Source: Obrimoposthia wandeli
Lineage: Eukaryota
Direction: 5' to 3'
DNA length: 64,000 nt
NCBI GenBank assembly: GCA_977020255.1
Contig: CDROCS010000586.1
Span: 124,001 to 188,000 of the forward strand
The position numbers and the translations under genes are program-made. Below the pieces are notes generated by a model. It had not been told where the DNA came from and did not search any database. It saw only the letters and a list, made by a program, of their open reading frames with translations. This document shows, piece by piece, positions 12,601 through 64,000 of the stretch (the first letter of the stretch is position 1; every line of letters starts with the position of its first letter).

Positions 12601-15600
12601 CTAGAAACGGAATTTGTGGAGAGAAAATTGAATTTCAACTCAGTTTTGGGACAATAGATGATGAATTACTGTGAATTCCTGACCAAAGTCTCCATAACAA
12701 ACTGTGGCATTCAAAATTGAGTCTGTTCGAACTAGAACTTGATGGATGATTTCATATTTACAGATAGGCAAACTCAACTTTGATAGTCAGAACGAGCAAA
12801 TTGTGGTAAGGAGTGCTACTAAGAACCTTTTGCATTGTATAATTTAATTTTATTCACGTTTGTCGGCGTGTGTTTTTTAAATAGTAAATTTCACTGCTGA
12901 TATTATTGAAATAGTAATTTGTGTTTTGTTCCCCTGGGATCCTTCTCAGCTAACAGGGTAATTTGGGTTTCATTTTGGTGCGCTAAGTTCACAGATACAC
13001 TCAAATTAATTATAAAAAGGTGAATAGAAATTCTCAATATCTACTACTTACAAATGATCAGTATCATCAGTCTCATTTTCACTTTTTTACTTTATCAAAC
13101 ACAAATTAAAATTGAATTATTAAAGTGATAATTTACTTTATTTCCCACAATAAACGATGACTAAAATTTCTAAAGAAACTTATTATCAAAAAAACATAAG
13201 TTGGTAAAAATGAAAGATGGATATCTGTAAGTAAAATTTTAAACTCAAATGTTGCATTTCCACTTTGATATTTTTGTAACAAGGTAAATATTCAAACTTG
13301 AGTTCTCTGATTTCGAGAAAAATATGAATAATGAAAATGTTAAAGGGGTTTCTGTGCTCGATTACTGGATGTCCCGTTAATATCCAGTTGTATTATAATT
13401 TATTTGGATGTTCGACAATGCAGAAGCAAAACTCGAACTCCATTCACCTTTACATACACCGTGCTGGAACATTTCAACGAATTTCACGTCCAAATTTCAA
13501 CTCAATCCGAGTATCCAGTTTATTTTGAGAAGAGTCAATGTACTAAATGAGGCGCCATGCAAATTTTATGTACCCCTATATTTAATGTGCAATTTAATAC
13601 TTCACTACATTCGGTATTTTCCATTAACTTTATATATCTAATTCGATCTCACATTCAACTTTCAGGTTTCTTCAAAATATACAAATTTTCATTTCTAACT
13701 ACAAACATTTGTTACTGAAAGTACGGAGAACTGTTTGAGTAACATTTGTGGCTTAACACCGCAAGGTCATATGGTAGACTTCAGTTTTCATTCGTGACAG
13801 AGGATGTTCACATATGATGGTTTTGGTGATGCAATATCTGGGAACCCTTGTTTGGGTCACAGAACCTTTGCTTTAATATGGACTCATGGAAGTCCCCTTA
13901 CCTCCATCTGAAGGTAGTGCAGTAGTATGCAATATCTGGGAACCCTTGTTTGGGTCACAGAACCTTTGCTTTAATATGGACTCATGGAAGTCCCCTTACC
14001 TCCATCTGAAGGTAGTGCAGTAGTATGCAATATCTGGGAACCCTTGTTTGGGTCACAGAACCTTTGCTTTAATATGGACTCATGGAAGTCCCCTTACCTC
14101 CATCTGAAGGTAGTGCAGTAGTATGCAATATCTGGGAACCCTTGTTTGGGTCACAGAACCTTTGCTTTAATATGGACTCATGGAAGTCCCCTTACCTCCA
14201 TCTGAAGGTAGTGCAGTAGTATGCAATATCTGGGAACCCTTGTTTGGGTCACAGAACCTTTGCTTTAATATGGACTCATGGAAGTTCCCTTACCTCCATC
14301 TGAAGGTAGTGCAGTAGTACTGTAATGTCCACATTAATCGGTGACTGTTAATTATTAATCAATCAATGTAAATTAAATCGCTCTTGCATATTATGTACAA
14401 TATAATTCCAGATATGTTAGGCGAGGTACCCTAGTAGACAGTTACTGTTGTTTTAAATAGTTTGATACCACAATTTTATTACAATGTTAAAATATGTCAG
14501 AACATCTCCTATAATTTCGTGTGGTCGATTCGTACATTTGTATAAGTAATAAATTAAATGTTGCCTCTTTACAGATCAAGTATACGCCGAAAAAGCTCCG
14601 CTCTCGGTCTCTGTTATGAACTCGCCTTCCCTCAATTGGCAAAGGCGGTTGTAAATTTAGTCAAGGATCTTGTTGTCATCTTCACAGAGGTTAGTAGCCC
14701 AAACATAAGGCCGTATATAATTTGTCTGGAGCTAAGTATCTGCCGTTTAGTAAAATATACGAAAATTAAAAGCAATCGGAATAATTCCAAAAGAAAGAAA
14801 TTAGCTACAATATGATTGATAAGAAATAATCGTTGAAAGGCACTCAAGCAGGTGAGTTTTTTTACTTCAAAGACAAACGGAAGTAATTTTAGCATCGAAT
14901 TGTTATTGTGACAAAATTGAATTTATTACGATATCCCAAAGAATATAAAAGCATGGGAGAAACTAGGCAATCCTACAACATCAATGCCCAAACGGAATCC
15001 TCTTGCAATTAACGTTATATTGCCTTTTGTATCACGAGCTGCTGAATCCGTCTGAAACTATCGCTGGTGATTTCTACCTAGAACAATTAGTCGACTTGAG
15101 TCAGGAACTTAATTAAAAACGCCAAGATATTATGAATATGATATCTTATTTTAAAAACGGATGACACTTATTCGAGTACTCAGTGCAAGTTCAGGTAAAT
15201 ACCATCAGGTTGAAACTGAAATATTATTATGGCATAATGGCGTCATAATAAAAATCATAATTTGACTTATTTGATATGGCGTGCAAACATTCTAGCTCCT
15301 ACAATTCATGTGATCCCAAGAGTTTCATTTGCTCAGTTCTATTAATACTTTCATTGATCTGTGCCAGACAACATTAGTTGAATACCAAACATAAGAGGTT
15401 GGTTTACTTAAGAAAATAAGTTCTTACAATGCAAGAACATTTTTTTTTCTCTGTGTACCATTTGTCGGGGGAAAACGTGTGTTTGTCTGGGCCTGTGATA
15501 TTGATTGATCAGAGTTGGGGTTATCTCGAAAAAAGCTGTGACAAATGTCTACCCGGACTATTTGCTCGCCGTTTGGAATTCTCCCAAATATCCCACCACA

Positions 15601-37947: not shown

Positions 37948-38178
37948 ATAAATCTTGTAGATGCATAACCGTTCACGCTTGTTTGAACTAATGTCTTAAA
38001 ATGGACAAAATTTCAATGCTTGTATCTCTCATTATAATAAAGCTCAAATACATTATGTTACATAAAAATTAAATACTTTTATAATTTAAAATTTTTGCGC
38101 GTTTGAATATGTAGATATTCAGTTTGAATATATGTTAACAAACGTCTCTCAGTATAATAGATTTAAAGAATGGTCATG

Positions 38179-38946
38179 AGTAGGTGGATGTGTCCGGTCT
38201 AATCCACCCCCCTCTCCCGGGGAGCTACCACTGTCCTTTAAAACCGTGCATGTGTGTGGAGTGAAATTTTCTATCCCGGCCCCACCCAACACCCTAAAAA
38301 CTAATTAACCCCATTTAACACCCTTTAAAATTGAAAATCTCATAGTGCTCACACAGAGTGAGGAAGTGCCTGAGAGGTCATCGAAGGGCCAACGCGAGCC
38401 CTTCGGGCCCGCGGTAGCCTGACGAGCAATACATATATACAGCCTCAATGGATATTTTGCTGATGACGGGAAAATGCAGCCTCTTTGGACTTTGAGTGAA
38501 GCCACTATGGTGTTTTATGTTTGATTTAATAAATGTTTTGAAAATAATTTTGACTCGTATTTTGTTTTTCTCCTCTAAATTATATAGATCTATTTTTTCT
38601 CCTATAAATCTGACCTAGATATTTAAAAAACATGTAGTTATCTAAAATCTTTCTTAAAAATAGTAGTAATATATTCACATAAACATATTATTTGAAATCT
38701 CGTCTGCGATAAGCCGCCGGGGTCAAAATGAATTCACGTAGTCTTCTCTAATCACCTTTGAGATTAGCGGTAAATTTCAAAGTAAAATTTGTGCCCCCCT
38801 TCGGGTGAAATGGACACACATGCACAAAATTTCACTCCACACACATGCACGAAATTTCACTCCACATACATGCACGGTTTTAAAGGACAGTGGTAGCTCC
38901 CGGGAGAGGGGGAGGGGATGGATTAGACCGGACACATCCACCTACT
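38179..38946. mobile_element. Non-autonomous TIR element (~770 bp)
   Basis: ~90-bp terminal inverted repeats AGTAGGTGGATGTGTCCGGTCTAATCC... / ...GGATTAGACCGGACACATCCACCTACT; no TSD recognised. Confidence 0.75.
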
Positions 38947-39409
38947 GTCTAGAATAAAAAACGAAAATGCTTATCAAACACCTTAATAGATATATGGAAC
39001 AAAATAATGTTAAAAATGCTAAATTTTAAAAAGGTTAAATAAAATAAATTATAAAAGTTTTTACAACCAATTGTATTTTTTTTTCATGCACTAACTGTAT
39101 AAATTATTAAAAATGAGTTATTATTTCTCTTCGCAGTTTAGTCTATGAATTTGAGTGGATACAATTGTACGACTGCTCAATGTGTGGCTTGTTAAACAGC
39201 AACTTTCCCTAACACAACATTTGAAGGAAGGTGTTCCTGTGTGATCCTTCCTATTAGTAATAGTGGTAGGGAAATGGGTAAATGATAATGGTGGTTTCTG
39301 TGGTTAGTGAGCAGTATGCGAGTTTGTCATTTGGGCTATTTTGAAAGTAGAATCAATGTCTTAAGTTGTGACAATCTATTTGATCTAGACAGGGAATATT
39401 TGGTCAATT

Positions 39410-46519: not shown

Positions 46520-47817
46520 CAGGGTGCGGAGAAAGTTCCCGATCGAATTTTGAAAATTGAATTAAAGATATTATTATTTAACTAAATTTATCCATTTTTG
46601 GCTTATTTTGTTTGTAGATACATATATTTATATGTTTCAGATCCAAATTTCCAAAAATTTAATTTGCATTTGTTTAAAATGAGTAAACGTGAGGCCATTA
46701 TCCAACTTCATTGCATGGGAAAGACGAACCCATAGATTGTTAAGATCTTAAAAGCTCCAAAATCAACAGTTCGGGATGCAGTAAACCGATACAAAGAACT
46801 TGGGACATCAGACGATCGTCCCAGAAGTGGACGCCCCGAACTGCTCGCACCTCAGCCAAAATAAAGGCCGTTAGGGAGCGAATAAGGAGGAACCCCAAAC
46901 GAAGAATGAAGAAAATGGCCAAGGACTTCAAAGTTGACGAAAAAACTGTCAGAACAATTGTCAAAGATGATCTCAAGTTATCCCCTTTCAAGATGACTAA
47001 CAGACAACAACTGACGGAATTGCAAAAACAGAAGAGGGTCGAAAGAGTCAAGATTCTCCTGAACCGAAAGAAGGATGGCACGGATGCTGGGGTAATTGTC
47101 TTTTCTGATGAAAAAATGTTCACTGTTGAGGCTCAGTTCAACTCGCAGAACGACAGAATTTTAGCTAAGAGTGCTGATAGCATTCCCAGTTCGGTAAAAT
47201 CCGTTTACCGTCGCCAAAAACCTAGCTCGGTAATGGTATGGGCAGCCATCTCTGAGAATTGGAGATCCTCTCTCATTTTTGTTAAAGATGGTGCTAAAGT
47301 TAACGCAAACTCGTACATCCAGGATATTTTGACTCCAGCCCATGTTGAAATGAAGAAACATTTCAAAAATGACCCTTTCACATTCCAACAGGACGGTGCG
47401 CCATCTCACACTGCGAACAAAACTCAGGACTGGTGTGAGAATCACCTTCCAGCTTTCTGGAGGAAGGAATTGTGGCCTCCTTCATCACCTGACTTGAACC
47501 CTCTGGACTTTTGTGTCTGGTCCATCTTGGAGAGAGAGGCCTGTGCTACAGCCCATGATAATACAGAAGCTTTGAAGAAGTCTCTTAAGCGGGAATGGGC
47601 CAAAATTCCCCAGGAATCCTTTCGTGCCGCAGTGAAGAGCTTCAGGGGGAGACTTGAGCGTGTAATTGAAGCCAAAGGCGGCCACATTGAAAAATAGATA
47701 GTATAAATGTTAAATAGAGCTCTAACAAATTGTGTGTGTTATTTTTTGTTTAATTTCAACCTTTATTAGTTGTTAAATTTAACGTTTTATGAGATCGGGG
47801 ACTTTCTCCGCACCCTG
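46520..47817 (+). mobile_element. Full-length Tc1/mariner maT (DD37D) transposon
   Basis: 25-bp TIRs CAGGGTGCGGAGAAAGT(T/C)CCCGATC with one mismatch; TA TSDs at 46518-19 and 47818-19. Confidence 0.93.
46679..47697 (+). pseudogene. maT transposase, disrupted at the 5' end
   Basis: ATG at 46679, TAG at 46733 and a frameshift near 46838. Intact FSDEK, QQDGAPSH and SSPDLNPLD, with 37 residues between the 2nd and 3rd Asp. Confidence 0.88.
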
Positions 47818-50214
47818 TATATATATAAGCTGATTTATGTGTTTTGAGAAGTCAAAATTTCAATAAATAGCATCTTATTTTTTGTAGTATAATCCTGCTA
47901 ATAAATTTTGATAATTTTATTAAACATGTTAAGTTAAAAATATATTAAGTTGGTCTATGAGAAGGTCTAAACAAATTCACTATATAGTTTATATGTGTTT
48001 TGATGAGAAAGGTTGACTTGTACGAAATAAATGAGCCACTAACCTGATTCAACTATAATGAAAACAGCTCCAACGTGTAATTAAAAGTAGTTTTTGAGCA
48101 TAATTTTAAAGGATTCGCGCACAAAAGTGACATGTTAGGCTGACATTTTCTTCAATTATCTACAATTATTTATTGATACAAAGACAGTCAAAAAGCTTGT
48201 CAAATATAAATTTTAGTTATCTCATATTTTGTTGCAAATTCCTCACATTTTAAATTATTATGTTAAATCTATTGAAATGTAATGATTAATTAAAATAGAA
48301 CAGTCATTTATAAAAACGGAATAATTTTTACTGATTCTGTATCTAGTCGGTTTTACACAGATTCGCGGATATTACTAGTTTAATCTGGATTCTGAATTAC
48401 ATGCTTTGAAGAGAACGATGTTTAATAGCTTTTTATTCGAATTATTTCGATTTTAACTATTTTCTGTACATTTTACATACATTTTATCCCTGTGTTAGAG
48501 GCCAATCAATGGAATCAAAAAAGAATTCCGAGGAAAAACCATTCCACAGAATGCTATATTTCAGCTAAGGAAAGAAATCTAAACAAACTTTCAACTTGAT
48601 CAGTACATCTTATAAAGCTCACCATCCCAATTAATCTAATAATAAAAACTTGAGCAACATTTTAGTTTTTCAAAGTGATATCGGATATTCTGGAAAAAGG
48701 TTTTTGTTACAGAATTGTCCAAATTTCTGGTCGTGTTAACTCGTGTAGAAATATCTCTCTACGTACTACGCCTATTTTGTATAACTTTAAAATACATGTC
48801 AAGGAAGGCCGTAACAACTTATTTGCAAAGTTTCATTTAAACCTCACAGTTATGTTTTGAGAAAAATCTTCTTTTAAATCCTGTCTGTATATCGGCGTTC
48901 ATATGAAATTTCATTATGTATTAGAGATTTACAGTTTTTTATGAAAACTTTTTTCGCAATAAATGACATTTTTAATATTACAAAATATTTTTAAAAAAAA
49001 CATAGATTTTAGTACACATTTAAAAGTTAAAAGACATTTAACAATTTTGTAATAGAAATGTGAAGTTTCAATTTAGGATAAGTAATATAAAGTCAAAAAA
49101 CTTACTTTAAAAATTCTAATTCCTAATTCTTGATAGTCCTTGTCTAAGGCAAAATTTCGAAATAAACCAAATCTAAATAAGTTTTTTAACTAACCGAATT
49201 CGATAATTAAAAAGTGTTACGTAATTCATTTCAATTATTGTCTGTGTTGTATCTTATCTGAATTGTAAAAATAAAATGAGTCAAGATCAATATTATCAAA
49301 TTTCAGTTATTAATAATTTTAACTTTGACATTAAACCATGACTTCAACATAAAATAAATGCAAACTTTCGGTTTTTGTATTTAGTTTCAGGCACTTTATG
49401 TTAATTTAGCTGTTTGGTAAAAAAAGTAATCTGAGAAAATGAAGAAAATTAGCAATTGAATAAATTTTCAATTGTACAGTCAGTTTCACTTAAAAATGTA
49501 AAGTATTCCTTAAAATAATTACTTTAAATTTATTTATTATCTCATATTTTGTTTGTAATTTCTACATTAATAGACTGACAAAGGAACATTCCGAAATGCT
49601 CATCTCTGAATCATGTTAATATTATTTTAAATACATTATGAGCCATTAAAATAGTAAAAGGAAGGTTTCAAAAAATCTGCTAAGATTTTTAATACATTAT
49701 TCTTATTTAAAATATTATTTCTTCTTTCTTCAAGTAAATTATAAAATCTAATAAACGTTTTTTAACGACATTTTAAATATTATACCTCGTCATAAATTGA
49801 AAAATAAACAAAAAAGATATCAAAACTGCAAAAATAATTTTTTATTCACATCTTCTGTCAAAGCAGCAGATTGCTTCATAATGTCTATTTTAGATCACAC
49901 GTTGAATTAAATTGATGGCCATATTTGTGAACATGGTTTTGACACATGGTGGTACATTATTTGAGCAAATAACTCGTTTTCATTCACTGATTTTAATGCC
50001 TCCATCTGCAACAAATTCAGATTATTTTCACTATTTAGCCGGTTGCTTTCGATGAATTGCGGCTCTGATTTTTTACTGCCACATGTCGCACCCATATCAT
50101 TAATGAACCTCCAGCAGATTGACGTCGACTTCTAGTTAGTGGCTCTTTCCTAAGATCGTTACATCACACCTTCAAGCTATTTTGTGAACACAACTCCTTG
50201 AACACACCACAAAA

Positions 50215-50372
50215 ACAATAAGACACAAAACCTTCAGATTGAGACTAGAATTAAGTATGACACAAACAGGTAGGCCACATCCATCTGTAAGCCCTATCGC
50301 TACAGAATTCACGTTGGGGGCCTCGATACGAGGATCTACTTAATTAAAGAGTTTCAAATAGAAACCCCAACA
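50215..50372 (+). mobile_element. U5 end of the 5' LTR of a decayed Ty3/gypsy-type element (element H); LTR start not resolved
   Basis: Ends ...TAGAAACCCCAACA and is followed by a PBS. Homologous to the ends of the two inserted LTRs (ACCTTCAGAT, TAGGCCAC, CACGTTGGGG, GAGGATCT blocks). Confidence 0.75.
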
Positions 50373-50380
50373 TATTAAAT

Positions 50381-50398
50381 TGGTGCCCCGAGTGAGGA
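50381..50398 (+). promoter_or_regulatory. Primer binding site, 18 nt, probably tRNA-Thr
   Basis: TGGTGCCCCGAGTGAGGA is the complement of TC-CTCAC-TCGGGGC-A-CCA, i.e. tRNA positions 59-76 with the invariant C61. A GTGAG/CTCAC T-stem is typical of tRNA-Thr as I recall. It sits 8 nt after the LTR end. Confidence 0.8.
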
Positions 50399-50529
50399 AA
50401 GCTCGTCGGACACAGCGAATTCACATAGAATAAAACAGCGAATTGAGAATAAGTTATAGAAGAAGAATAAGAAAAGATAAGTTAATTGAGATTAATAATT
50501 TTAATAAGTAAGTAAATCGAATAAATTTG

Positions 50530-50805
50530 TAAATCGAGTTGATAAGTTTCTCGAAGTAATTAATTTAAATAAGTGTTTAAATCGAGTTGATCCTCGAAGT
50601 AAGTAATTTGAATAAGTTTGTAAATCGAGTTGATCCGTTCCTCGAAGTAAGTAATTTGAATAAGTTTATAAATCGAGTTGATAAGTTCCCCAAAGTAAGT
50701 AATTTGAATAAATTTCGTAAATCATGTTGTTAAGTTCCTCAAAGAGATAAATTGAATAAGTTTAATAAATCGAGTAGATAAGTTCTCCAAAGAGATAAAT
50801 TGAGA
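50530..50805. repeat. ~48-bp tandem repeat (~6 diverged copies) in the 5' leader of element H
   Basis: AAATCG anchors at 50531, 50579, 50622, 50670, 50719, 50767. Confidence 0.8.
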
Positions 50806-52157
50806 GAGAAATTCATAAAATAATAGTTGAGAAATAAGAGATAAAAGTAATAAATAAATAGAAGTCGTAAGAAGTAAGCAATTACATACTTGATAAGACG
50901 ACGGTTAGTCAAATAGAACTCACGTTTAAATTTGAATTAGTTTTGAATTTTAGTTTTGAATTGACTGACTTGTTTGGTGAAGTAAACCAAGAAGAAATTG
51001 AAGTTATTGAAGTTGCGAATCAAGGAGATATTGAAATTGCAAATTCAGAGAAAATTAAGGAAATTGATTTGAAGAATTTTGAAGAAATAGTTGAAAATAT
51101 GGCTAACGCAAATAATAATGCAGAAAATAATGTAGATAATATTAATACAGAACAGTTGGCACAAGTTTTGAATGCGACGTTTAAACCCAACTTTACCGGA
51201 TCTCTGCAGATCGCAAAGTTTAAAGGAGACGAGGAAAGTATTTTGTGACTTCCTGGCGGAATATTCGAGTTGCGCAGATGTGCAAGGATAGAACGAAAGA
51301 GAAAAATGTGTCCGCGTACATGCGCATTTGACAGGATTAGCACTTAAAGTGTATAAACACATAATAAAAGCAGAACGTGAAGATTAGGAAACATTGGAAA
51401 AATGCTTTTATAGGAAAATTGGTGTTGTAAGATTTAGCAAACGTGAATAAACGAATTTTGAGAGAACATAAATAGAAACATAACAAGAGAGTGAATGAAT
51501 ACATGAATGCATCTGTTGGGGTTTCTATACGAAACTTGGTATAGATCCTCTTGAATGCGGAGGGCCCCAACGTGAGTTCGATTAGAAGCAGGTCTTAAAG
51601 TTGGTCGTGGCCTACTTAGTTTTATGGTTGCCTAATCTCTTGTACTATCTGAAGGTATTTGATTTGATGTCTCTTATTCTGAAGGGTGCAAAAACAACTT
51701 GTTCTAATGTAGGAAATTGTTTATTTGTAATTCACGAACTAAAACACAACAATACGTTTATGTACGTATTTTCTAAAAAGTATAGTAAAAATTCCTAAGA
51801 CTTCTGTAAGTCTCTACAACAAGTGGGGATGAACCACGTATCGATTTTATGTTAAGGGTGATCGAGTTTTTAGAGTCGTTCCTCTAACTCGCGAATAAGC
51901 TCAAGTTAAGATTTTCAATTTAATGTGACTCTTATGTCAAACTCTAACTTTAATTCCCAATTTAACTTTAATGGCAAACTTTTATCTTTATACCAAAACT
52001 ATGGCAATTTAGACAAAACTTCTCTTCAAACTTTTATGTCAATTTAGACAAAAACTTCTCTTCAAACTTTTATGTCAATTTAGACAAAAACTTCTCTTCA
52101 AACTTTTATGTCAATTTAGACAAATTAGACAAATTGTAATGTCAACTTTATGACAAT

Positions 52158-52408
52158 TTTAAAGGAAAAAACTTCTTTTATTTACTTCAAATTCTGTCCA
52201 ACTTTATAATGACTTTAAGGGAAAAAACTTCTTTTATTTACTTCAAATTCTGTCCAACTTTATGATAACTTTAAGGGAAAAAACTTCTTTTATTTACTTC
52301 AAATTCTGTCCAACTTTATGATAACTTTAAGGGAAAAAACTTCTTTTATTTACTTCAAATTCTGTCCAACTTTATGATAACTTTAAGGGAAAAAACTTCT
52401 TTTATTTA
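52158..52408. repeat. 56-bp tandem array (~4.5 copies) inside the solo LTR; preceded by ~3 copies of the 35/36-bp unit (52009-52125)
   Basis: TTTAAGGGAAAAAACTTC anchors at 52158, 52214, 52270, 52326, 52382. Confidence 0.9.
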
Positions 52409-52705
52409 TCTTCGTCGCGTCTCACCTATTTGAACCGATGGATATATGTTGGATTGTCTGCGCGAGCACGAGTTGTCCGGAGAATCACGGTCTGAGCGAG
52501 TACGATTTGTCTGCTAGCGATCTCTCCTTAGCTGGTTAGGTTCCTCGCTGTAGCTCGGCGGGGATAAATTTGATCGTCTCGCTGTGGCTCGGTGGGGATT
52601 CCTGATTCGATCCGCTGTGTGGATTGTAGAGTTGGCTGGAGATACTGCTCACTGTATAATAGTTTGCTCTATCTGATTAGAGACTGCTCGTCTAGCTTGG
52701 GTTTT

Positions 52706-52915
52706 GAGAGCGATCTGATTAGAGAGTTGCCGATTTCTAGCTTGTGTTTTGAGAGCGATCTGATTAGAGAGTTGCCGATTTTAGCTTGTGTTTTGAGAGC
52801 GATCTGATTAGAGAGTTGCCGATTTCTAGCTTGTGTTTTGAGAGCGATCTGATTAGAGAGTTGCCGATTTCTAGCTTGTGTTTTGAGAGCGATCTGATTA
52901 GAGAGTTGCCGATTG
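52706..52915. repeat. 45-bp tandem array (~5 copies) inside the solo LTR
   Basis: Unit GAGAGCGATCTGATTAGAGAGTTGCCGATTTCTAGCTTGTGTTTT. Confidence 0.9.
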
Positions 52916-53879
52916 CTTTTTTCCCGTTCTGTTGCTGGATTATCAATTATTACTCAATTGTATGAGTTCTTACCGGAGTTTCTTCTTTGCTCGGATATGC
53001 GTCTGTCGCAACAATGATTTCCCTTTTCTTTTTTGTGTAGTCGGTGTGTTGGTGACTTATATAGTCAATTTCCAATCAGCAATGTCGGGCAGCTGAAATA
53101 TATTTCCTGAGCCCTGAGCGTAATTCCTGACAGCTGAAAAATTCAATTAATTCACGGCACGAAAATGTGCTTACCGTTTCCTTGATTGACGTTTTTCTTT
53201 CTGCTGACGTTAGCAGATTCTAAATTATTCCCGTTTTGCTTTTGCTTAGTTAGTTTGTTGCACTTTTGGGTTAATTAATTTAACTTATATATATCTTACA
53301 CTATACACGACCTTCGTGGTCCTCCTAATTTTTACCCTAAATTCCACTAATTTCAATTCTAAAACTAAAATTATTATTTTAATTTAATTTTCAACCTTGC
53401 TTTCAAGGATTTTTTATTTTAGTATTTAATCGAAAAAATATTTAAATTTCTTAATTCTCAAACCTAACACATCCAAGAAAAATATTGAGAACTCCTGCTG
53501 GCGAACCTGTAGCAGCAGCTGTACAATTAATAGAAGATAATCTGAATCAAGGCGAAATGGCAGAGGTACTGTTAGATATATTTAGAGGTGAACTGTAAAA
53601 AGATACTAAAGTATTATTGTCAGTATCAAATATAAATGGTTTTGACAACACCGTGCGAAAGGCGAGAGAAATTGAGTAGAATATAAAGAATAATGTAGCG
53701 TTAGCAATTTACGTAGTGATGACAAATGATGATGATAAGACAAAGGTTTTTGTAAATAAGACAGAACCAAGTAATTTTCAAAATCAGAATTATGGACAAA
53801 AAGAGTCTAGAGACATAAATAAGTTCGAGAAAAGAAATGAATTTAGTAATGAAAATAAAGGTAGAAATAGCGACGATTT

Positions 53880-54700
53880 GAGAAATAAGGAAATCATAAG
53901 AACTAAGTTGGCATTAGCTATTACGAATCCAGACATGGTGGCACCACTATTGCTTCTAGACGAAGAAATATTTGCTAAATCAATGGGATAAGTAATGTAT
54001 ACGTACAGGGATAAAAAAGTACTGGTAAAATTGAGAGAAACAACTCGATGTACAAGTGAATTACCAGTAACATATAACTTAAAACCACTTTTTGTAGAAC
54101 CAATATCAAGGATGATACTTCCTATTGACACTCCATCTAAGGAGATAAGTTGCTCTAATATAATGGCACCTGAATATAGATTATTGAGAGACTTATGGAT
54201 AATATTACCTGACCGTAAGCGAACAGGAACTCCAGAGAGAATAAAAATGACGACACCCTAAGAAAAATGGAGTTCAAAGCTGTAACGAATATTGAAAGTG
54301 CAGGTTTATATAATTAGAAAAATCTAAAAGCGGCCTGGAATGAAATAATGTTTCCAGTAAGAAGGGCCAGAGTACTAACGGAAATGGTACATCGTGCATT
54401 ACCACCAAGAGCTACATATGCGAATTTTGATATGATATTGTCGGCAAGTCATTTCAAGGAAGTGGCACATCAGACACTTAGGAAAATGTGGGGAAAATTC
54501 TTTGTATTAAGACAATTTTTAAAGTATAATAGGAATTTTTGATATAATTATATTTGTACAGGTAATTATAGCTCAGGTGTTGTCCACATATAGTTTGTAC
54601 AGGATAACTGGAATCACCTGGCAGCTTATAATTGGATATTTTTTCTATTTCTAGCAAAATATCTAATGCACCATCGTCACGAAAATGAATTGCGAGCTCT
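53880..54700 (+). pseudogene. env: C-terminal half of a chuvirus-like (class III, gB-like) envelope glycoprotein
   Basis: KLALAITNPD...G*VMY...VKLRETTRCTSELPVTYN...FVEPISRMI...EISCS..APEY...IMFPVRRARVL...MWGKF, then hydrophobic IGIFDIIIFVQVIIAQVLSTYSLYRITGITWQL. Motif order matches chuvirus-type G from memory; stops and frameshifts present. Confidence 0.7.
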
Positions 54701-55033
54701 CAAGAAGGAGCAACATCAAACTAGAACTAGAACCGTCGAGACGACAATGACGACGATAATGATAGTTTGGGAGACTATGCGAAGATACCAAAAACAGGGC
54801 ATCCAAAAATTCCACTGTAAAACAAGGAAGAACCAGTACCAAATCTTTATCCAATGAAGAAACTAAAGGAAGAAAAAGAAAAGTTCAAAAGAGGAATTTT
54901 AATGATAAGATGGCCTAGAGTGAACTATAATAAGCTTCTATAGGAAAAAGAGAAAAAAGATAATTCCAGAAGAATTCTGAAGTCTAGGATATCTAATGAG
55001 AATCCGAATGCTCCACCACAAGTAGCAGTAACA

Positions 55034-55330
55034 ATGAACGGAAGAGAATATATTTCCGAGGTCGATACTGGATCTGCAGTATCAGTACTGAGTAAAGAAA
55101 TCTTGTCATCAAAAGAACTAGAAAAAGTGTGTCATAGGAAAAAAACATTTGTCAACGTAAATAGAACATATGTAGTATCAGAAGGAATACTGAAATGTAA
55201 ATTAACTATTGATGGAAGAGAACTGCTGCTAAATGCAAGAATATTCACCTATTGTGGTAGTCCAGTCATGATTGGAATGGATGTGATACGAATGTTCGAA
55301 GGAATAATAATATTAATAAACAACAAGAGT
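55034..55330 (+). pseudogene. Retropepsin (A2 aspartic protease) of element H
   Basis: VTMNGREYISEVDTGSAVSVLS and VMIGMDVI motifs. Confidence 0.85.
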
Positions 55331-56619
55331 ACTAAGAACAACAATTCAGTGAGAGAGATAAAGATGCTGGGAAGACCTATGAATGAAGGAAAAGACATAA
55401 CTAGTTTCAAGATAGAAAACTCGTACCGAAACAAGACATAGGAAGTGCTAGTGAATTCGATACTTCACTACAAAGGAGTAAATAGCGGACACAAGTGATC
55501 TTTATTGATTGCTTCTTTTTAGAGAGGTTGGATAAAAGGAAGAGAGAAACTAGTCCACAGAAAAGGAAAATTACTCAGTTGTTGTTGGTTGTAAAATCGT
55601 CAAGCGTGAAAAGAATCCCAGTCGACACAAATATTCAGAAGTAAATCTAGGTAAGAACCCCTTAGTTAAGTAGCGTCTATTTAATGTCTACTTTCTAAAA
55701 AAATTAGAGAAGAAGAAAAGGTGGTGAATTATCTATTATCGAGAAAATCGTATAAAAGGAAAATTATACAAGAAGAAATTGACTGACTCTTTCTAGGAAA
55801 TTATAGAAGAAAATTGCTTGACTCTAAAATTCGAAACAAGCAAACATCTCTCTAAAAAGGTAAGCAAAGGACGCAAACCAAAACCACTAAAATAATCAAG
55901 AAACTTTCACAGAATACTCATTGCGACAGAAGGCAATCGGATCGGCCAAATTTGAGGAGGAGTCGTGACAAGGATATCTAGACGCCGGAATCTCAACGGA
56001 AGAGAATCCTGGACTCTGTAGACCTACCGGAAAGTTAATCATCATATTTAGAGAGATGTGAGTTGTTGTGGAAAAGATATCTTTAGAATTGTTGTTCACA
56101 CAAGTGATTTGTAATTTTTATCATTTTGTTGGGGTTTCTATACGAAACTTGGTACAGATCCTCTTGAGTGCGGAGGGCCCCAACGTGAGTTCGATTAGAA
56201 GCAGGTCTTAAAGTTGGTCGTGGCCTACTTAGTGTTATGGTTGCCTATCTCTTGTACTATCTGAAGGTATTTGATTTGATGTCTCTTATTCTGAAGGGTG
56301 CAAAAACAACTTGTTCTAATGTAGGAAATTGTTTATTTGTAATTCACGAAACTAAAACACAACAATACGTTTATGTACGTATTTTCTAAAAAGTATAGTA
56401 AAAATTCCTAAGACTTCTGTAAGTCTCTACAACAAGTGGGGATGAACCACGTATCGATTTTATGTTAAGGGTGATCGAGTTTTTAGAGTCGTTCCTCTAA
56501 CTCGCGAATAAGCTCAAGTTATAGATTTTCAAATTACTGTGACTTTTATGTCAAACTCTAACTTTAATTCCCAATTTAACTTTAATGGTAAACTTTTATC
56601 TTTATACCAAAACTATGGC

Positions 56620-57365
56620 AATTTAGACAAAACTTCTCTTCAAACTTTTATGGCAATTTAGACAAAAACTTCTCTTCAAACTTTTATGGCAATTTAGACA
56701 AAAACTTCTCTTCAAACTTTTATGGCAATTTAGACAAAAACTTCTCTTCAAACTTTTATGGCAATTTAGACAAAAACTTCTCTTCAAACTTTTATGGCAA
56801 TTTAGACAAAAACTTCTCTTCAAACTTTTATGGCAATTTAGACAAAAACTTCTCTTCAAACTTTTATGGCAATTTAGACAAAAACTTCTCTTCAAACTTT
56901 TATGGCAATTTTAGACAAAACTTCTCTTCAAACTTTTATGGCAATTTAGACAAAAACTTCTCTTCAAACTTTTATGTCAATTTAGACAAAACTTCTCTTC
57001 AAACTTTTATGGCAATTTAGACAAAAACTTCTCTTCAAACTTTTATGTCAATTTAGACAAAACTTCTCTTCAAACTTTTATGGCAATTTAGACAAAAACT
57101 TCTCTTCAAACTTTTATGGCAATTTAGACAAAAACTTCTCTTCAAACTTTTATGGCAATTTAGACAAAAACTTCTCTTCAAACTTTTATGGCAATTTAGA
57201 CAAAAACTTCTCTTCAAACTTTTATGTCAATTTAGACAAAACTTCTCTTCAAACTTTTATGGCAATTTAGACAAAAACTTCTCTTCAAACTTTTATGGCA
57301 ATTTAGACAAAAACTTCTCTTCAAACTTTTATGGCAATTTAGACAAAAACTTCTCTTCAAACTTT
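56620..57365. repeat. 35/36-bp tandem array (~21 copies) inside the 3' LTR
   Basis: Unit TTTAGACAAAA(A)CTTCTCTTCAAACTTTTATG(G/T)CAA. Confidence 0.95.
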
Positions 57366-57366
57366 A

Positions 57367-57620
57367 TGACAACTTTAGGACAATTTAGACAATTTTAGTG
57401 TCAAACTTTATGACAACTTTAGGACAATTTAGACAATTTTAGTGTCAAACTTTATGACAACTTTAGGACAATTTAGACAATTTTAGTGTCAAACTTTATG
57501 ACAACTTTAGGACAATTTAGACAATTTTAGTGTCAAACTTTATGACAACTTTAGGACAATTTAGACAATTTTAGTGTCAAACTTTATGACAACTTTAGGA
57601 CAATTGAGACAAATTTTAGT
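57367..57620. repeat. 44-bp tandem array (~5.6 copies) inside the 3' LTR
   Basis: TGACAACTTTAGGACAATTTAGACAATTTTAGTGTCAAACTTTA at 57367, 57411, 57455, 57499, 57543, 57587. Confidence 0.95.
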
Positions 57621-58755
57621 AATCTCTCTTACGTTTTTTGTCTCGAGGTTGAGATATCCTGAAGCGTTCCGGAATATACTGAGATCGAACACAAAAACCG
57701 ATCGGCTGACTGAATTTGAATTGCCGAATGAAAATTCGCTGATATAGTGCTGACTGGAACAACAATTGAACTGGTTCACAAGCTCTGCTCCGTGATAGAT
57801 CGAGTTCGGTTGAATAGAATCGATTTGTATGTCGCTGTTACGACGTTGCCCAAATCCGTGATAGATTGATCTTTAAGTCTTGTGTGACGAAACGTGAGAA
57901 TTTCCCAATCAGTTAGTTTGCTAAATCAATAATTAAATCTCCAAGTCTATCACAAAACCACCTGGTTGCTGCTAGGGACAATGTTGGTTTTCCTTGGTTT
58001 TTTGTGGTCTATTTCTCGGTAGATTGGGATATTGCTTTTTCCGGTTGTGTATTTCGTTTTCTTGTCGACGACTTTTATAGTCGATTCTGCAACTCCTGTC
58101 TGTCAGTCAGCAATGTCGACAGCGGTTTCAACTGGAGTCTTTTGCGGCAGCTGAAAATTAAGTTTAAACACTCCAATTTAACTGCACGAAAATGTGCTTA
58201 CCTTGATTGACGTTCGATTTTGATTGACGTTCGATATTGTTCCCTTTTTTCTTCTTTGCTTAGTTAATGTGTCTTTTTGTTGCACTTTTGGGTTAATTAA
58301 TCTAACTTTTATACATTTCACATTATACACGACCTTCGTGGTCCTCCTAATTTTTACCCTAAATTCCACTAATTTCAATTCTAAAACTAAAATTAATATT
58401 TAATTTAATTTTCAACCTTGCCCTCAAGGATTTTCATTTTAGTATTTAATCGACTAAAATATTTAAATTTCTTAATTCTCAAACCTAACATACCTCGGGG
58501 GTTCCAAAAAAGTTACGTCCCCGGAACGTATCGATTTTACTTAAACAAGCCTCTGGCTGTTGATTTTAGGTTCATCCCTACAAAATCAATCATTCAACTT
58601 CAACAAACATGCCCAAAACAAAATTTCTCAAAATCCCGGTTTTTAGTGGGAAACATAATGTATAATTTGGAGCAAGTCTCAGACTATACATTATTATCTA
58701 TACACAAAACTACATGCATAACCAAGGATTAGGAAGGAAAGAAGGGAGGAAAGGG

Positions 58756-59286
58756 TCAATTGTCATAAGTTAGGTCAATTGTAATTGTCGGCTGGTTCCG
58801 ACTGGCCAGGTAGCGCAGAACCTGCTCCAGGGGTAGGTCGGGAAAGGACGGACTGTCCCCGTTGTACAGGTGTAGTTGTTGGCTCCGGGTTAGGTGTGGG
58901 CTCTCGACAAACAGGTCGAAATACTGCCCGTTCATCGCGTGATTTTCTATCCAGAGACGTCTGGCCTGGAACCACGAGTGGCAGTCTCGACTAGACCGCC
59001 ATCTCTCGCGGATGCCCAGTTGTGTGTCGCGCCGGCGTGCGAGACATACGTAGCATTGGCAATGTATGCCACCAATGCAGCTGGCAGGCGATCGGGTGCC
59101 CTTGTGCCTTCCACGGCTCTGGAGCGTCCATTTGCCAAAGGGTGTCCGGCACAGTGGACATGTGATATGGCCGGGGGGTCGAGCCTTGGCCCACAAATAG
59201 AGGCACTCCTCGTGGAATTTGTGACGGCAGCCGACAGGGGATGCTGATACCGCCCAAATCTTCTCCATGCATACAGAGCACTTCAT
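58756..59286 (-). CDS. RING-H2 E3 ligase-like ORF C (RING + C-x5-CxC-x2-C + C-terminal SIM-like ITIDLT)
   Basis: CSVC-x13-CRHKFHEEC-LYLW...CPLC; acceptor ttattttcttatgcag directly abuts the ATG at 59286. Confidence 0.88.
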   Translation of the reverse strand: MKCSVCMEKIWAVSASPVGCRHKFHEECLYLWAKARPPGHITCPLCRTPFGKWTLQSRGRHKGTRSPASCIGGIHCQCYVCLARRRDTQLGIRERWRSSRDCHSWFQARRLWIENHAMNGQYFDLFVESPHLTRSQQLHLYNGDSPSFPDLPLEQVLRYLASRNQPTITIDLTYDN

Positions 59287-59626
59287 CTGCATAAGAAAAT
59301 AACTCCTTTCAATTTGGGGTTCACCGTTCTCATCGTTAATTTAAATTTTATTTCAAAACGAATCCTTAGTTATCTAATCCTACCGAGTTTTGTTTCGATT
59401 TTAGGCATGTTTACGCATTCACACTAAGCATAAAAAATTGTCTTTTTAGAAATTCAGTATAATAATTACAATTTCAGTTAAACATCATACATAAAAATGG
59501 TAATGGTCAATTTACAGTTCACAAGATTATATAATTATGATTACAATTATGGTAGCTAATTTATCGCGGTATGCGATACACAGGGTAGTTCATGATGTCA
59601 CGTTCAAGTCAGAAAGTTACCTTCGA

Positions 59627-59932
59627 TTATTGTTGGGAATTGGGCTGGCCTGTGCTTCGCTCCTCCACGCAGAACGAGCACCAGCAATCGCAGATGGTTT
59701 TCCAGCAGTGTACGATGGGTACCACTGCTTGGAGGCTGTCTTGGTTGTACACGTAGTGTACTGAGAAGGTCGCTCTGCACATCGGGCAGGTTGGGAAGTC
59801 GAGGGGATTGTTGCTGTTTGCGATGGGGATCCACGTCTCGAGGCATTCGACGTGGAAAAGGTGGTCGCAGTTGTTGGGCTTGGTGTAGAAGTCCACGATG
59901 CCCTCGTAGCAGATGGAACATTCTCCAGACAT
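59627..59932 (-). CDS. RING-H2 E3 ligase-like ORF B (RING + C-x6-CWC-x2-C)
   Basis: CSIC-x13-CDHLFHVEC-LETW...CPMC; acceptor ccctcccacag 2 nt before the ATG. Confidence 0.88.
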   Translation of the reverse strand: MSGECSICYEGIVDFYTKPNNCDHLFHVECLETWIPIANSNNPLDFPTCPMCRATFSVHYVYNQDSLQAVVPIVHCWKTICDCWCSFCVEERSTGQPNSQQ

Positions 59933-59992
59933 TACTGTGGGAGGGTTGATGTTGAATTTGGGCTCGATTGAGGACTGGTGGTTGTGTGATGT

Positions 59993-60292
59993 TTACACAA
60001 AAGTGGTCTGATTTTGTCGATCTGACAAACAGTAATAACACCAACACTCTCCGAAATTCTTCCAACAGAATACCACCTGTACATATACATCTTCTTGGTT
60101 GGTTTCTAACATGATGAATCTTGCGAATTGTCTTCTGCATACAGGGCAACAAGGGTATGTTGGATGTCCGAACTGTCCATAAGTTCTGATCCATGTCGAT
60201 AAACATTCCTCGTGGTGTAAATGGTTGCAGGTTTCGGGTCTTGTTCTTCGTTCGGTTAGATCTTCCAAACATATTGGGCATTCTTCGGACAT
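59993..60292 (-). CDS. RING-H2 E3 ligase-like ORF A (RING + C-x6-CWC-x2-C)
   Basis: MSEECPIC-x13-CNHLHHEEC-LSTW...CPVC; acceptor tgtatttag 1 nt before the ATG at 60292. Confidence 0.88.
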   Translation of the reverse strand: MSEECPICLEDLTERRTRPETCNHLHHEECLSTWIRTYGQFGHPTYPCCPVCRRQFARFIMLETNQEDVYVQVVFCWKNFGECWCYYCLSDRQNQTTFV

Positions 60293-60415
60293 TCTAAATA
60301 CATGATGATGATTAATTTCTACATGAGTTTTATATATTTCTACTATTTGTACAATCACTTCTAGATATTTCTACATATTTCACACACTAATTTATCTACA
60401 ACCTCCTCTGACTCA

Positions 60416-63400
60416 TCATATCTTGATGGGAGGCGGAGGTAAGGGTCGCAATTCCACTTCCTCCATGGTGGGTGTGTCACAGCATCGCAATCCTTCGCAT
60501 TTTCGTCGTATTCCTGGGCATACTTGACTGCCTTTTACGCACACGATTGTCAATAAAACCACTGCTGTTGACACTACGGCCATTCCAATTAGGGCATTGA
60601 CCGCTGTTATTCCGCTGTCTGATGATTTATAATCGTACTTCATTTTGTTGTTTGTCGGTTCGAATGACATTTCCATGGGTTTTGATCGGTTTCCATGTAT
60701 TATGTCCGATTTTCTAAAAATTCGGGGATTTGGGTGTTTTGTTTCTGATGGAACAGGTATTATTATTTTGGATTGGAAATGATGTTTGGGATCTAGTGGG
60801 ATCGTTCCCTGCACTCTTGTCCTCTTATTAATTGTACTTTTGTTTCTGGGATTTAGCTCTTTTTCTTTCGCTTCTGTCTTTGTTCTGATCACTGTCTGGT
60901 TTTTGGAATGGCGTTTACTTTCGATTACCTTTGCCTTCTTTTTGACTAGGATTGGTCTTTTGGGAATGATTTTCCTGGGTTTGATACTTATACCGGATTT
61001 ACGAAATCGACGGTTCTGGTATCTTAGAGTTATGTAGAATATTTCACCTGTTATTATCATGATTATGGTCGAGGTCTCTGTAGTATTACTGGCAATTCGA
61101 TTACACAGACATTCTGTGTTAAAATGTGGTACTAACATTTGGCTTTGGATTTCGAATCTGATTCCGCCATCTGGGTTGGGACACATTACTGTCACCCTGT
61201 CAGTTTCTAACAATCTGAAAAATATTCTAACGGAATTCCATACGGTTTTACGTCGTCTGCCTGTGATCATAATCCTGTCGACAATTTTCCAGATGCGCTC
61301 ATCTCTAGGCAATATTAATGACTTTGTTCGGATACTTTGGATAATCCGCTTCCTCTTTGATATTGTTATCCGTAGGTATAACACTCTTTCATGATACAAT
61401 AATATTAAATTGTAAACGGGTGTATTTTGGTCGATTTTTATTCTGACCTGTCGGATGACATACAATTTCTGATCGATATTGTCAGTTGCTGACGTCTGTA
61501 GATGAATGTCTACTACGTGATTTGTTTTTAGTAGGGGGATTTCTATGTATACTGCCCGTATTACGTCTTGTCTCCATTTACTGATCATGATCTCATAACT
61601 AGCCTTGGTAGTGGTGATTTGTATGATCAGCATGATTCCTATGATCGTTCGATTCCTAAACTCAGGAACTTCAATGAAACAAGTCAAATTACTCATATAG
61701 TACGGTCTTTCCTCGATGTGTTCATATATCGTTGGCTGGTATTCTGGTGCTGGTTCATCTAGAAATGGTGGACTTGGTATAATTGTGTTGAAATTTTGTA
61801 AGTTCATTTGACCTGTTCGTCTTGCGAGATCATGCCGTTTCTTTTTTGATCTCAACTCTAACTTTGTACAACAAAACAAGATGAGCAATATTAATATTAT
61901 AAATCCAATGATCAGTGCGAGTATTGGATTAACCAATTCTAGAATACCGTAACGTACTGCTGGTATTCCTTTACTCTTGATGGTTAATATTTTAAATTTG
62001 TGTGCACTTTGGTTGGACATGTCACTGAGAAGCACTATTTTAGTTTGTCCAAATATGTAGTCTTCACATGTGACAACACTAACTCCATAATGTCCATTAA
62101 GTGTTATCATTTCGGTCGCTGGGACTATACACATTCGTCCTGGACATCCTTTTACACACATGATCATCACGGCTCTACTGTGGGATGTCTTGATTATTTC
62201 TAGGGTGTTGTCTAGATTTCTCAAATGTAAATTATATTCGGATAGTGTCATCAATTCGGCTTTACTGGTTGGCATGGCTTGCAGTACCAATCCAATTACT
62301 ACTCCATAGATCAATCCTTGTACAACGGTGCACAGGGCCTTGACCGACCTTTTGCAAAGGGTTTTAATTATCAATCGTTTGAGAGATATCTGTTTCTGAT
62401 TGGATCGTTTTGTTGTCTGTCGTTGTTTTGACATCTCCTCGATTCCATCTCTTCCGATAATCAACTGTACCGGTTTACCTTGTATCATCAACTTTCCGAA
62501 TCCATTTTTGGCGGACAAGCATGTTTTATGTCCTTCCATCGTTTCAATTATCACTCTCTTACTTCCATACTCACGTGTTTTGATGACATCGCCGTCGAAT
62601 ATATACGTTGGTCCTTTTGTATCAGCATCTTTTTGTATTTCCTTTACAACTCGTTTTCTTCGCTTGCATCCGGCGAATGTTGTTGATATTTGGTCAAGTG
62701 TGCGTTGTCGGTCAGCTTCGTAATCTATCCGAAATTGATTCAGTATTCTGTTTTGTGGGTAAAATATCGCTTCATTTACTATGTTGTCTTCGATCCTTTC
62801 GTCTAGATACACAAGCACTTTGTTCGTTGGTCCATTTGGTCTTTTCATCTTTACAAACTGAAATCTTTTACTGTCGGTTCTCATAGATCGAAGACATTTT
62901 CGGATGATCCACACATCAATTAGTCCTAACAATACTAATAACATCATCAGTGCCGGCGTATGGTACTGTATGGTGTAGTTGTGGATTTCGTTGAACCAGG
63001 AACTATTTCCGTGGTTGGAGCCTATCTCCTGTGCTCCCGTTATCGGCATTAAACAACTTAACAAGCCTATCGCTAGCAATCTTTGGTATTGAAAGCTGGG
63101 CACTGTTGTTGTAGCTTCATTTGTTTCTCGTTGTTGTTTCCTCTTTTCGGTGTATTTCTCTATTTCTCGAACGAGTAACGGTTTGAATTCCGTATTTGGT
63201 CTATTCTGTTTGATGTAGACCATCGCTTCCTCTGGCGTGTGACCATGGTACTCTACCAACAAGGATACACCTATGGTAGGCGCTAACATTGTACCTTTTT
63301 TCTGATATATCAGAACGCCGTTTCCTTCTGTGACTTCGGCTTGGATGGTTTGAGTCAATTTCGTCAGATGTTGTTGTGCATCGTTTATTTCTCGATTGGA

Positions 63401-64000
63401 AGCATGTATGTATCGAGTGGTGTCATCTTCAGTATTTTGACACAGACTAATTATCTCGTTTCCGACTTCAACAATGTTGATTACTCGGTTGATACTGTGG
63501 AACTTTAATCCAGCAGTATCTATATCTCCTGGATGACATAAAAATACTTTTGGCATTATCTGTGTAATTTTATCGACTCCGGCTAAAAATAACCCGGTTA
63601 ATGATAATGCTTGGAGGAAATTCTTTTCCTTTGGGTCCTCAGGAATGTCGTCCATCCGTCTTTGTTCTTGCAACAGAAGTTGGTAATTTGCCAACTGTCC
63701 CAAAAAATTAAGATTTGGGTTTGCAATACTTCTTCTCTCCTGTAGGTATTTTAGCGCTTCTAGTACCTGCATTCGTCTAGTCTTTATTAGGTATGCTAAT
63801 ACTAGAGTTGCTGATCGAGAAATTCCTTTCTGACAATGTACCAACACTTTTCCTCGGTTCCGGAGTTCTCTGTGAAGTATTTCGTTTGTTTCTACGAACC
63901 ATTCGAGAAGATTAGCGTCCATTGAGTCTTTTACTCTTAATGTCATAGCTCTGATTGTCTGATATTGTGATTTGTGATTCATTGTAACGTTGATCACGTA
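60416..64000 (-). CDS. C-terminal >1193 aa of a retroelement-borne polyprotein: dual-specificity phosphatase, pseudo-phosphatase, three signal peptide/TM modules; open past the window edge
   Basis: Uninterrupted frame (TAC at 64000-63998 is in frame). VHCQKGISRSATLVLAYL at 63838-63812; a second DSP fold at aa ~144-283; alternating signal-like and TM segments. Lies between the window edge and the 3' LTR. Confidence 0.9.
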   Translation of the reverse strand, partial: YVINVTMNHKSQYQTIRAMTLRVKDSMDANLLEWFVETNEILHRELRNRGKVLVHCQKGISRSATLVLAYLIKTRRMQVLEALKYLQERRSIANPNLNFLGQLANYQLLLQEQRRMDDIPEDPKEKNFLQALSLTGLFLAGVDKITQIMPKVFLCHPGDIDTAGLKFHSINRVINIVEVGNEIISLCQNTEDDTTRYIHASNREINDAQQHLTKLTQTIQAEVTEGNGVLIYQKKGTMLAPTIGVSLLVEYHGHTPEEAMVYIKQNRPNTEFKPLLVREIEKYTEKRKQQRETNEATTTVPSFQYQRLLAIGLLSCLMPITGAQEIGSNHGNSSWFNEIHNYTIQYHTPALMMLLVLLGLIDVWIIRKCLRSMRTDSKRFQFVKMKRPNGPTNKVLVYLDERIEDNIVNEAIFYPQNRILNQFRIDYEADRQRTLDQISTTFAGCKRRKRVVKEIQKDADTKGPTYIFDGDVIKTREYGSKRVIIETMEGHKTCLSAKNGFGKLMIQGKPVQLIIGRDGIEEMSKQRQTTKRSNQKQISLKRLIIKTLCKRSVKALCTVVQGLIYGVVIGLVLQAMPTSKAELMTLSEYNLHLRNLDNTLEIIKTSHSRAVMIMCVKGCPGRMCIVPATEMITLNGHYGVSVVTCEDYIFGQTKIVLLSDMSNQSAHKFKILTIKSKGIPAVRYGILELVNPILALIIGFIILILLILFCCTKLELRSKKKRHDLARRTGQMNLQNFNTIIPSPPFLDEPAPEYQPTIYEHIEERPYYMSNLTCFIEVPEFRNRTIIGIMLIIQITTTKASYEIMISKWRQDVIRAVYIEIPLLKTNHVVDIHLQTSATDNIDQKLYVIRQVRIKIDQNTPVYNLILLYHERVLYLRITISKRKRIIQSIRTKSLILPRDERIWKIVDRIMITGRRRKTVWNSVRIFFRLLETDRVTVMCPNPDGGIRFEIQSQMLVPHFNTECLCNRIASNTTETSTIIMIITGEIFYITLRYQNRRFRKSGISIKPRKIIPKRPILVKKKAKVIESKRHSKNQTVIRTKTEAKEKELNPRNKSTINKRTRVQGTIPLDPKHHFQSKIIIPVPSETKHPNPRIFRKSDIIHGNRSKPMEMSFEPTNNKMKYDYKSSDSGITAVNALIGMAVVSTAVVLLTIVCVKGSQVCPGIRRKCEGLRCCDTPTMEEVELRPLPPPPIKI

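Follow-up and report, generated by a model that had tools for sequence, protein, structure and literature searches.

The order gag, C-terminal half of a PF24664 glycoprotein (G) and retropepsin, found at positions 50169-56126 of the 64,000-nt stretch analysed here (the window), belongs to a giant Ty3/gypsy LTR element, in a copy that is dead and has undergone two deletions. In the reading that we favor with high confidence, intact relatives of this copy encode a class III G between the gag and pol parts of a single polyprotein, and a signal peptide and the family's first protease (PR-A) likely separate Gag, Env and Pol. Judged from alignments with other copies, the direct joining of gag to the middle of G is a deletion private to the studied copy.

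Anatomy of the copy in the window

The copy and its insertions consist of the following parts (window coordinates, strand, feature).

50169..50375, +, 3' remnant of the 5' LTR with the end GAAACCCCAACA; 77-85% identity to LTR ends of other copies
50381..50398, +, primer binding site (PBS) TGGTGCCCCGAGTGAGGA; 18/18 complementary to the 3' end of tRNA-Met(CAT)
50952..51502, +, N-terminal and capsid part of gag with stops and frame changes; tblastn, L064 aa 76-256, 52-71% identity
51514..53469, -, solo LTR of the younger subfamily within gag, 1,956 bp, target duplication CATC
53470..53889, +, C-terminal part of the gag capsid, stopping short of the CCHC knuckle, 2 stops; L064 aa 268-405, 64% identity
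53883..53899, +, deletion junction 1, an imperfect ~17-nt overlap of the gag-side and G-side alignments
53884..54719, +, C-terminal half of a class III chuvirus/gB-type glycoprotein with membrane anchor, broken; PF24664, tblastn
54944..55441, +, retropepsin with EVDTGS, the family's PR-A and not the RT-proximal protease (PR-B); 85% to PR-A, 28% to PR-B
55493..56126, +, probable interior of the copy's own 3' LTR, older subfamily; resumes past the inserted neighbour at G000:C586:204696-205363
56127..58490, -, 3' LTR of the neighbour element, inserted into the LTR of the studied copy; unique LTR parts 430/430 and 870/870 identical
58759..64000, -, 3' coding part of the neighbour, with a dual-specificity phosphatase (DSP) ORF and three RING ORFs

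With CCA added at its 3' end, a tRNA-Met(CAT) gene that is arrayed in the same genome accounts for all 18 bases of the PBS, and tRNA-Trp was dropped as the primer in favor of this full match. The priming tRNA-Met is presumably of the elongator type. Its genes form a tandem array with a unit of ~284 bp (G000:C2252:1-12000; 39 pattern matches on that contig). In both subfamilies, the PBS begins ~5 bases past the LTR end (window 50375-50381; L022:4265). The rest of the 5' LTR beyond the remnant was not found, and no target duplication was recoverable for the studied copy itself. Its two LTR ends, the 5' remnant and the far side of the inserted neighbour, are 85% identical.

The gag frame continues into G at ~53884 in the same frame. 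The pieces of G matched PF24664 (Monjiviricetes_fusion) at profile positions 341-460 (E 1.1e-16) and 462-546 (E 1.1e-9), and both matches exceed the curated cut-off. The transmembrane (TM) piece at 54490-54750 was assigned by tblastn to a natural ORF; a Pfam search of this piece gave no match of its own. The Pfam matches of the retropepsin fall below the cut-off in this decayed copy (E 4e-4). The first-pass annotation had described a PBS, gag, an in-frame C-terminal half of G with its TM region and a retropepsin, and this order was confirmed by the PBS, PF24664 and tblastn matches. Its suggestion that the protease is a second, accessory one within a giant polyprotein also proved correct, given the identities to PR-A and PR-B.

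No coding match above the cut-off was found at 55440-55960; an integrase tail and a PPT were considered there and rejected, and the sequence is LTR-like. Stop codons occur in every segment (gag 2+2+2, G 1+3, G-tail/protease part 3), together with several frame changes. The copy is predicted to be inert and to make nothing functional because it lacks the signal peptide, the N-terminal half of G and pol.

The neighbour is a young element of 24.6 kb on the minus strand (G000:C586:180127-204695), flanked by the target duplication ATTT and ~80% identical to the G-protease region of the studied copy. It reads, in broken frames, gag-CCHC, G, protease, BIR, RING, protease, RT, RNase H, integrase, DSP and three RINGs. 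Its coding region is split into ~10 frames despite the identical unique LTR parts, which reflects decay or assembly indels. Sequencing runs matching its G region comprised five rows from two studies, none of which is listed as RNA; one row, labelled marine metagenome, contained 0.30 of the query words.

The family polyprotein and its glycoprotein

A natural single frame of 4,645 aa is located at G000:C6901:56283-70217. Read piecewise, its order is Gag-CCHC-(Ubl)-(Bcl-2)-signal peptide-G-TM-PR-A-BIR-RING-PR-B-RT-RNase H-integrase-DSP-DSP. The BIR and RING domains of the relatives give Pfam matches above the cut-off, and the Ubl (E 0.009) and Bcl-2-like (E 0.097) segments between CCHC and G fall below it. 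Pfam gave no match at E 0.01 for the Bcl-2-like and dUTPase-like pieces of L064/L065; by eye, the segment between PR and RT, where Burro carries a dUTPase-like one, may resemble a dUTPase. Past the two DSP domains (window 60416-64000, minus strand, compared with L065:8218), the frame continues with several hydrophobic signal-like segments and no Pfam family. This part differs by copy, running on in some (a 3,057-aa piece in L071) and ending after the second DSP in others.

The same order is found in broken frames in the neighbour element and on contigs C693 and C76, and the local order Ubl, Bcl-2, N-terminal half of G, C-terminal half of G, PR-A and BIR is present in 12/12 loci with an intact G. 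A search of the genome with PF24664 gave at least 89 matches (68 of 20252 candidates scored), many of them in long open frames. When the G half and the protease were used together as a DNA query, 41 other matches with 83-87% identity were obtained (40 of 5011 candidates scored), and 28 of these 41 cover the query from position 87 or before to position 1514 or beyond. Therefore, the G-to-protease join is a family trait. In these sequences, the family places G between gag and pol. The domain order that the first-pass annotation proposed to read from other copies thus retains G between gag and pol, and the direct contact of gag with the middle of G is local to the studied copy.

The element type follows from the relatives, since pol is lost in the studied copy. 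Their pol order, PR-RT-RH-INT, is that of Ty3/gypsy (Metaviridae), and the named RT matches carry gypsy-type labels such as 17.6, 297, 412 and Ty3-G. The TG...CA LTRs, the target duplications of the neighbour and the solo LTR, and the tRNA-Met PBS agree with this assignment. A Pao-type backbone was not found: the relatives have the RVT_1/RT_RNaseH/rve set with YIDD, and no Pfam match to the Pao family was obtained in their polyproteins. The relatives also have the GAG-ENV-POL order and the class III env of the gB-type Platyhelminthes errantiviruses.

We used the G of an intact family member for structure prediction, not the broken copy in the window. Its ectodomain (535 aa, 14 cysteines) was modeled from a 120-row alignment with a mean pLDDT of 90.6 and a pTM of 0.75. 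The best matches of the model in BFVD were glycoproteins of chu-like viruses (E 1.6e-38, TM up to 0.76), and every listed match in the PDB was a herpesvirus gB (best E 2e-12, TM ~0.4). A profile search of PDB sequences likewise gave herpes gB in 31/31 matches, each of them weak (E 0.013-0.9), over the region equivalent to where the G piece in the window begins. By prediction, the family G is a class III fusogen of the chuvirus/gB type. The resemblance to chuvirus and herpesvirus fusogens suspected from the window is thus confirmed by PF24664, BFVD and the PDB.

Of the 14 polyproteins examined, 13 have a signal-peptide-like segment ahead of G, and the fourteenth begins inside G. Two hydrophobic stretches lie in the anchor region, one long and the other weaker, and PR-A is located 196 aa from the start of this region. 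The following model applies the general biology of polyproteins. Signal peptidase would cut ahead of the conserved x-[YF]-D-C motif that opens G, freeing the Gag part, and G would then enter the ER lumen. The anchor of G would tether the C-terminal part, from PR-A onward, in the cytosol. PR-A would release the IAP-pol part from the anchored G, and PR-B would serve as the usual pol protease. Intact members could form enveloped particles. The cleavages, the particles and fusion by G are all predicted, and the topology may differ if both hydrophobic stretches of the anchor region cross the membrane.

Relatives, precedents and the origin of the glycoprotein

Among 1.84 billion representatives searched, 1339 matches were obtained at E 0.001. 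The top G matches were polyproteins with 29-43% identity, and the remainder were mostly stand-alone proteins of ~650 aa with 22-28% identity. Several relatives contain CCHC, G, protease, RT and integrase within one chain. The bacterial MAG label on one relative is probably due to contamination. In the G tree (FastTree, 61 rows, including 45 stand-alone rows picked by length and rank), 15/15 polyprotein-type G rows lie on one branch (99), and the 14 ectodomain cysteines are in register across the 13 polyprotein-type G's that were checked. In the RT tree (36 rows), 8/10 G-bearing rows fall in one strongly supported clade and 2/10 in another. The G-bearing rows do not form one labelled group there and imply 5 changes among the 36 rows, in a tree where both clades include unlabelled fragments and the interleaved rows are short. 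The split of P0143 and P0144 from the other rows recurs in both trees. These sequence comparisons suggest a single origin of the G-bearing elements.

The relatives differ in size and content. P0144, P0136 and P0143 are compact, with G, one protease, RT and integrase within a single chain; the first two also carry CCHC upstream of G. The earliest branches of the G tree are those of P0143 and P0144. P0005 (ENA, 4,844 aa) is a polyprotein with seven Pfam aspartyl-protease stretches, ankyrin and C2H2. Protease motifs are also located past the integrase in P0005 and P0132.

A gag-env-pol layout with a class III env is already in print for flatworm elements. In the part of PMC6431247 (2019) available to us, Burro is described with Gag-CCHC, Ubi2-like, BCL2 and BIR segments in an ORF of 4,873-5,140 aa. 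Its env, located between BCL2 and PR, matches mononegavirus fusion proteins, and the authors call Burro the first case of an in-frame env between gag and pol. Chary and Hayashi (PMC13524379), in the part of their paper at hand, report gypsy elements in GAG-ENV-POL order, with a gB-type env, from Platyhelminthes, Nematoda and Bryozoa. Nine flatworm elements from Schmidtea, Macrostomum and Prostheceraeus are listed in the accessible supplement, and six of these are S. mediterranea elements spanning 14.5-18 kb. The name Burro does not occur in the main text of that paper as available. In the portion at hand, PMC13465017 credits Burro1, by citation, with a BIR-RING function and also cites an expansion among freshwater and land planarians.

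Burro / GYPSM1, known to us by description, shares with the present family one polyprotein of ~4,600-5,100 aa, Gag with CCHC, an in-frame env upstream of the protease that matches mononegavirus-type fusion proteins, BIR and RING, PR-RT-RH-IN and kilobase LTRs with tandem repeats. The putative Ubl-like and Bcl-2-like segments, with Pfam scores below threshold, stand ahead of env in the position and order known from Burro. However, the family is 24.6 kb long, whereas Burro exceeds 30 kb, and it has one CCHC instead of the 2-3 given for Burro1. The 4,645-aa polyprotein gave no matches to the MATH and ankyrin domains of Burro1. Unlike Burro as described, the family carries, downstream of integrase, a pair of DSP domains together with three RING ORFs, and two proteases flank its BIR-RING part, whereas the Burro description names one PR. 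Because the size and some of the cargo differ and a reference tree is lacking, the family is filed as Burro-like and not as Burro1. A search for RT homologues gave no named Burro sequence among the matches.

The gB-type Platyhelminthes errantiviruses described in the available text of PMC13524379 share with the family the gypsy pol, the HSV/gB-type env, the GAG-ENV-POL order and a likely flatworm host; the accessory domains and repeated proteases of the family are without discussion there. Three short motifs of an S. mediterranea ENV row gave one match in one protein (P0133), which is insufficient as an anchor for a tree. Anakin, a BEL/Pao element of mosquitoes with a chuvirus G (PMC7642597, as far as available), is likewise an LTR element with a chuvirus-type class III glycoprotein. 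It has a Pao backbone and insect hosts, whereas the family has a gypsy-type RT and carries G inside the Gag-Pol polyprotein. The comparison with Anakin made in the first-pass annotation therefore holds for the fold of G and fails for the backbone. According to the accessible parts of PMC7642597 and PMC10084718, capture of a chuvirus G by gypsy elements had not been found in arthropods at that time.

The first-pass annotation had also considered an independent capture of a chuvirus G by a gypsy lineage, which would be unrelated to Burro and to the known flatworm GAG-ENV-POL elements. We regard this as improbable. The nearest polyprotein G's are only 29-43% identical, the G-bearing RTs do not form one labelled group, and the single CCHC, the lack of a MATH or ankyrin match and the DSP domains are unlike Burro1 as described. 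However, the single branch of 15/15 polyprotein-type G rows, the shared cysteines and the recurrence of the P0143/P0144 split in the G and RT trees argue against it. In addition, the order Gag-Ubl-Bcl2-env-PR with BIR fits Burro as presented in PMC6431247, and an S. mediterranea ENV row in the accessible supplement of PMC13524379 is by eye in register with the family G. Capture of G is not unique to this lineage, given the precedents in the available parts of these two papers. The proposed gag-env-PR layout stands in that G is located upstream of the proteases and pol in the family, but by the same sources it is not new.

Two features may be less familiar: a protease directly follows the env anchor, and the number of proteases separating G from RT varies from one to several among the relatives. 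The literature on Burro and env gave no report of repeated proteases, in searches not aimed at that term. A broader proposal is doubtful: in flatworm gag-env-pol elements, a dedicated second retropepsin behind the env anchor might handle a luminal fusogen in the middle of the polyprotein. Protease duplication (from a single protease in the compact relatives and two here to as many as seven Pfam stretches in one relative) might then have let the lineage gain IAP, Bcl-2-like and phosphatase cargo, and the present family would be a young, IAP-carrying one in a triclad-like host outside Geoplanidae in the COX1 tree. The named COX1 matches did not include Dugesiidae, so the host may belong there.

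The host is likely a triclad or a close relative, provided that the COX1 considered here and contig C586 come from the same animal. In the multi-copy COX1 of the assembly, AAA is best read as Asn (table 9), and its best named matches are triclads with 68-73% identity. It groups with triclads (SH-aLRT 92), outside the geoplanid group. This likely host COX1 is present in at least eight near-full copies in large contigs, which are probably nuclear insertions. Also in the assembly are many contigs of bacterial origin and at least one further animal COX1 type (C5352).

The deletions and the other readings of the window

The overlap at junction 1 was measured against one copy of the same subfamily, in which ~3.2 kb lies between the two alignments. 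Relative to a natural ORF, the loss comprises aa 405-1655, or ~3.2-3.75 kb overall, and includes CCHC, Ubl, the Bcl-2-like segment, the signal peptide and the N-terminal half of G. Among the other matches, 0/39 pass query position 300 (window 53899; 40 of 2851 candidates scored). In close relatives, the N-terminal half of G lies directly upstream of the C-terminal half in 17/19 cases, and capsid is found there in 0/19. At junction 2, located at ~55493, the protease is joined to sequence ~270 bp inside the LTR-like repeat. This deletion took nearly all of pol from the studied copy, and its junction is spanned by 0/41 other matches (40 of 1633 candidates scored); as each junction search scored 40 candidates, either junction might still occur in a rare further copy. 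The studied copy is thus an old one that first lost ~3.5 kb and later nearly all of pol, and other old copies of the family have different deletions. The idea that the window holds a rearranged copy, in which a deletion fused gag to env, is thus borne out at junction 1.

The compact arrangement of gag, half G and protease could also represent a non-autonomous subfamily kept by selection, or else a domesticated gene for a membrane-anchored Gag-G fusion, as the in-frame gag-G join might indicate. However, a third of random joins would keep the frame by chance, and the stops in all segments, the solo LTR inside gag, the LTR ends of only 85% identity, the junctions confined to this copy among the matches scored and the different deletions in other old copies make this very unlikely. 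An assembly artefact, or chance nesting of an endogenous chuvirus fragment in a gypsy element, deserves the least credence despite the heavily nested, repeat-rich region, and for the family it is refuted by the G-protease join, which natural ORFs read through in one open frame and which recurs at dozens of loci and in unrelated assemblies.

As a dead, twice-deleted gypsy copy, the studied locus itself is decayed and of little weight. The family is a further flatworm gypsy example with a class III fusogen inside a Gag-Pol polyprotein, and it has young copies, with identical unique LTR parts and open frames of >4,000 aa. Processing by two proteases, if true, would explain how capsid, envelope and enzymes arise from one ORF and would help to test whether Burro-like elements are true infectious retroviruses.

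The window also contains other mobile DNA. A 317-aa open frame with a DDE_3 match at 46744-47697 (plus strand) is a Tc1/mariner-type transposase. Pairs of inverted repeats at 11219-13124 (182 bp, 92%) and 38070-39063 (68 bp, 88%) resemble non-autonomous DNA transposons.
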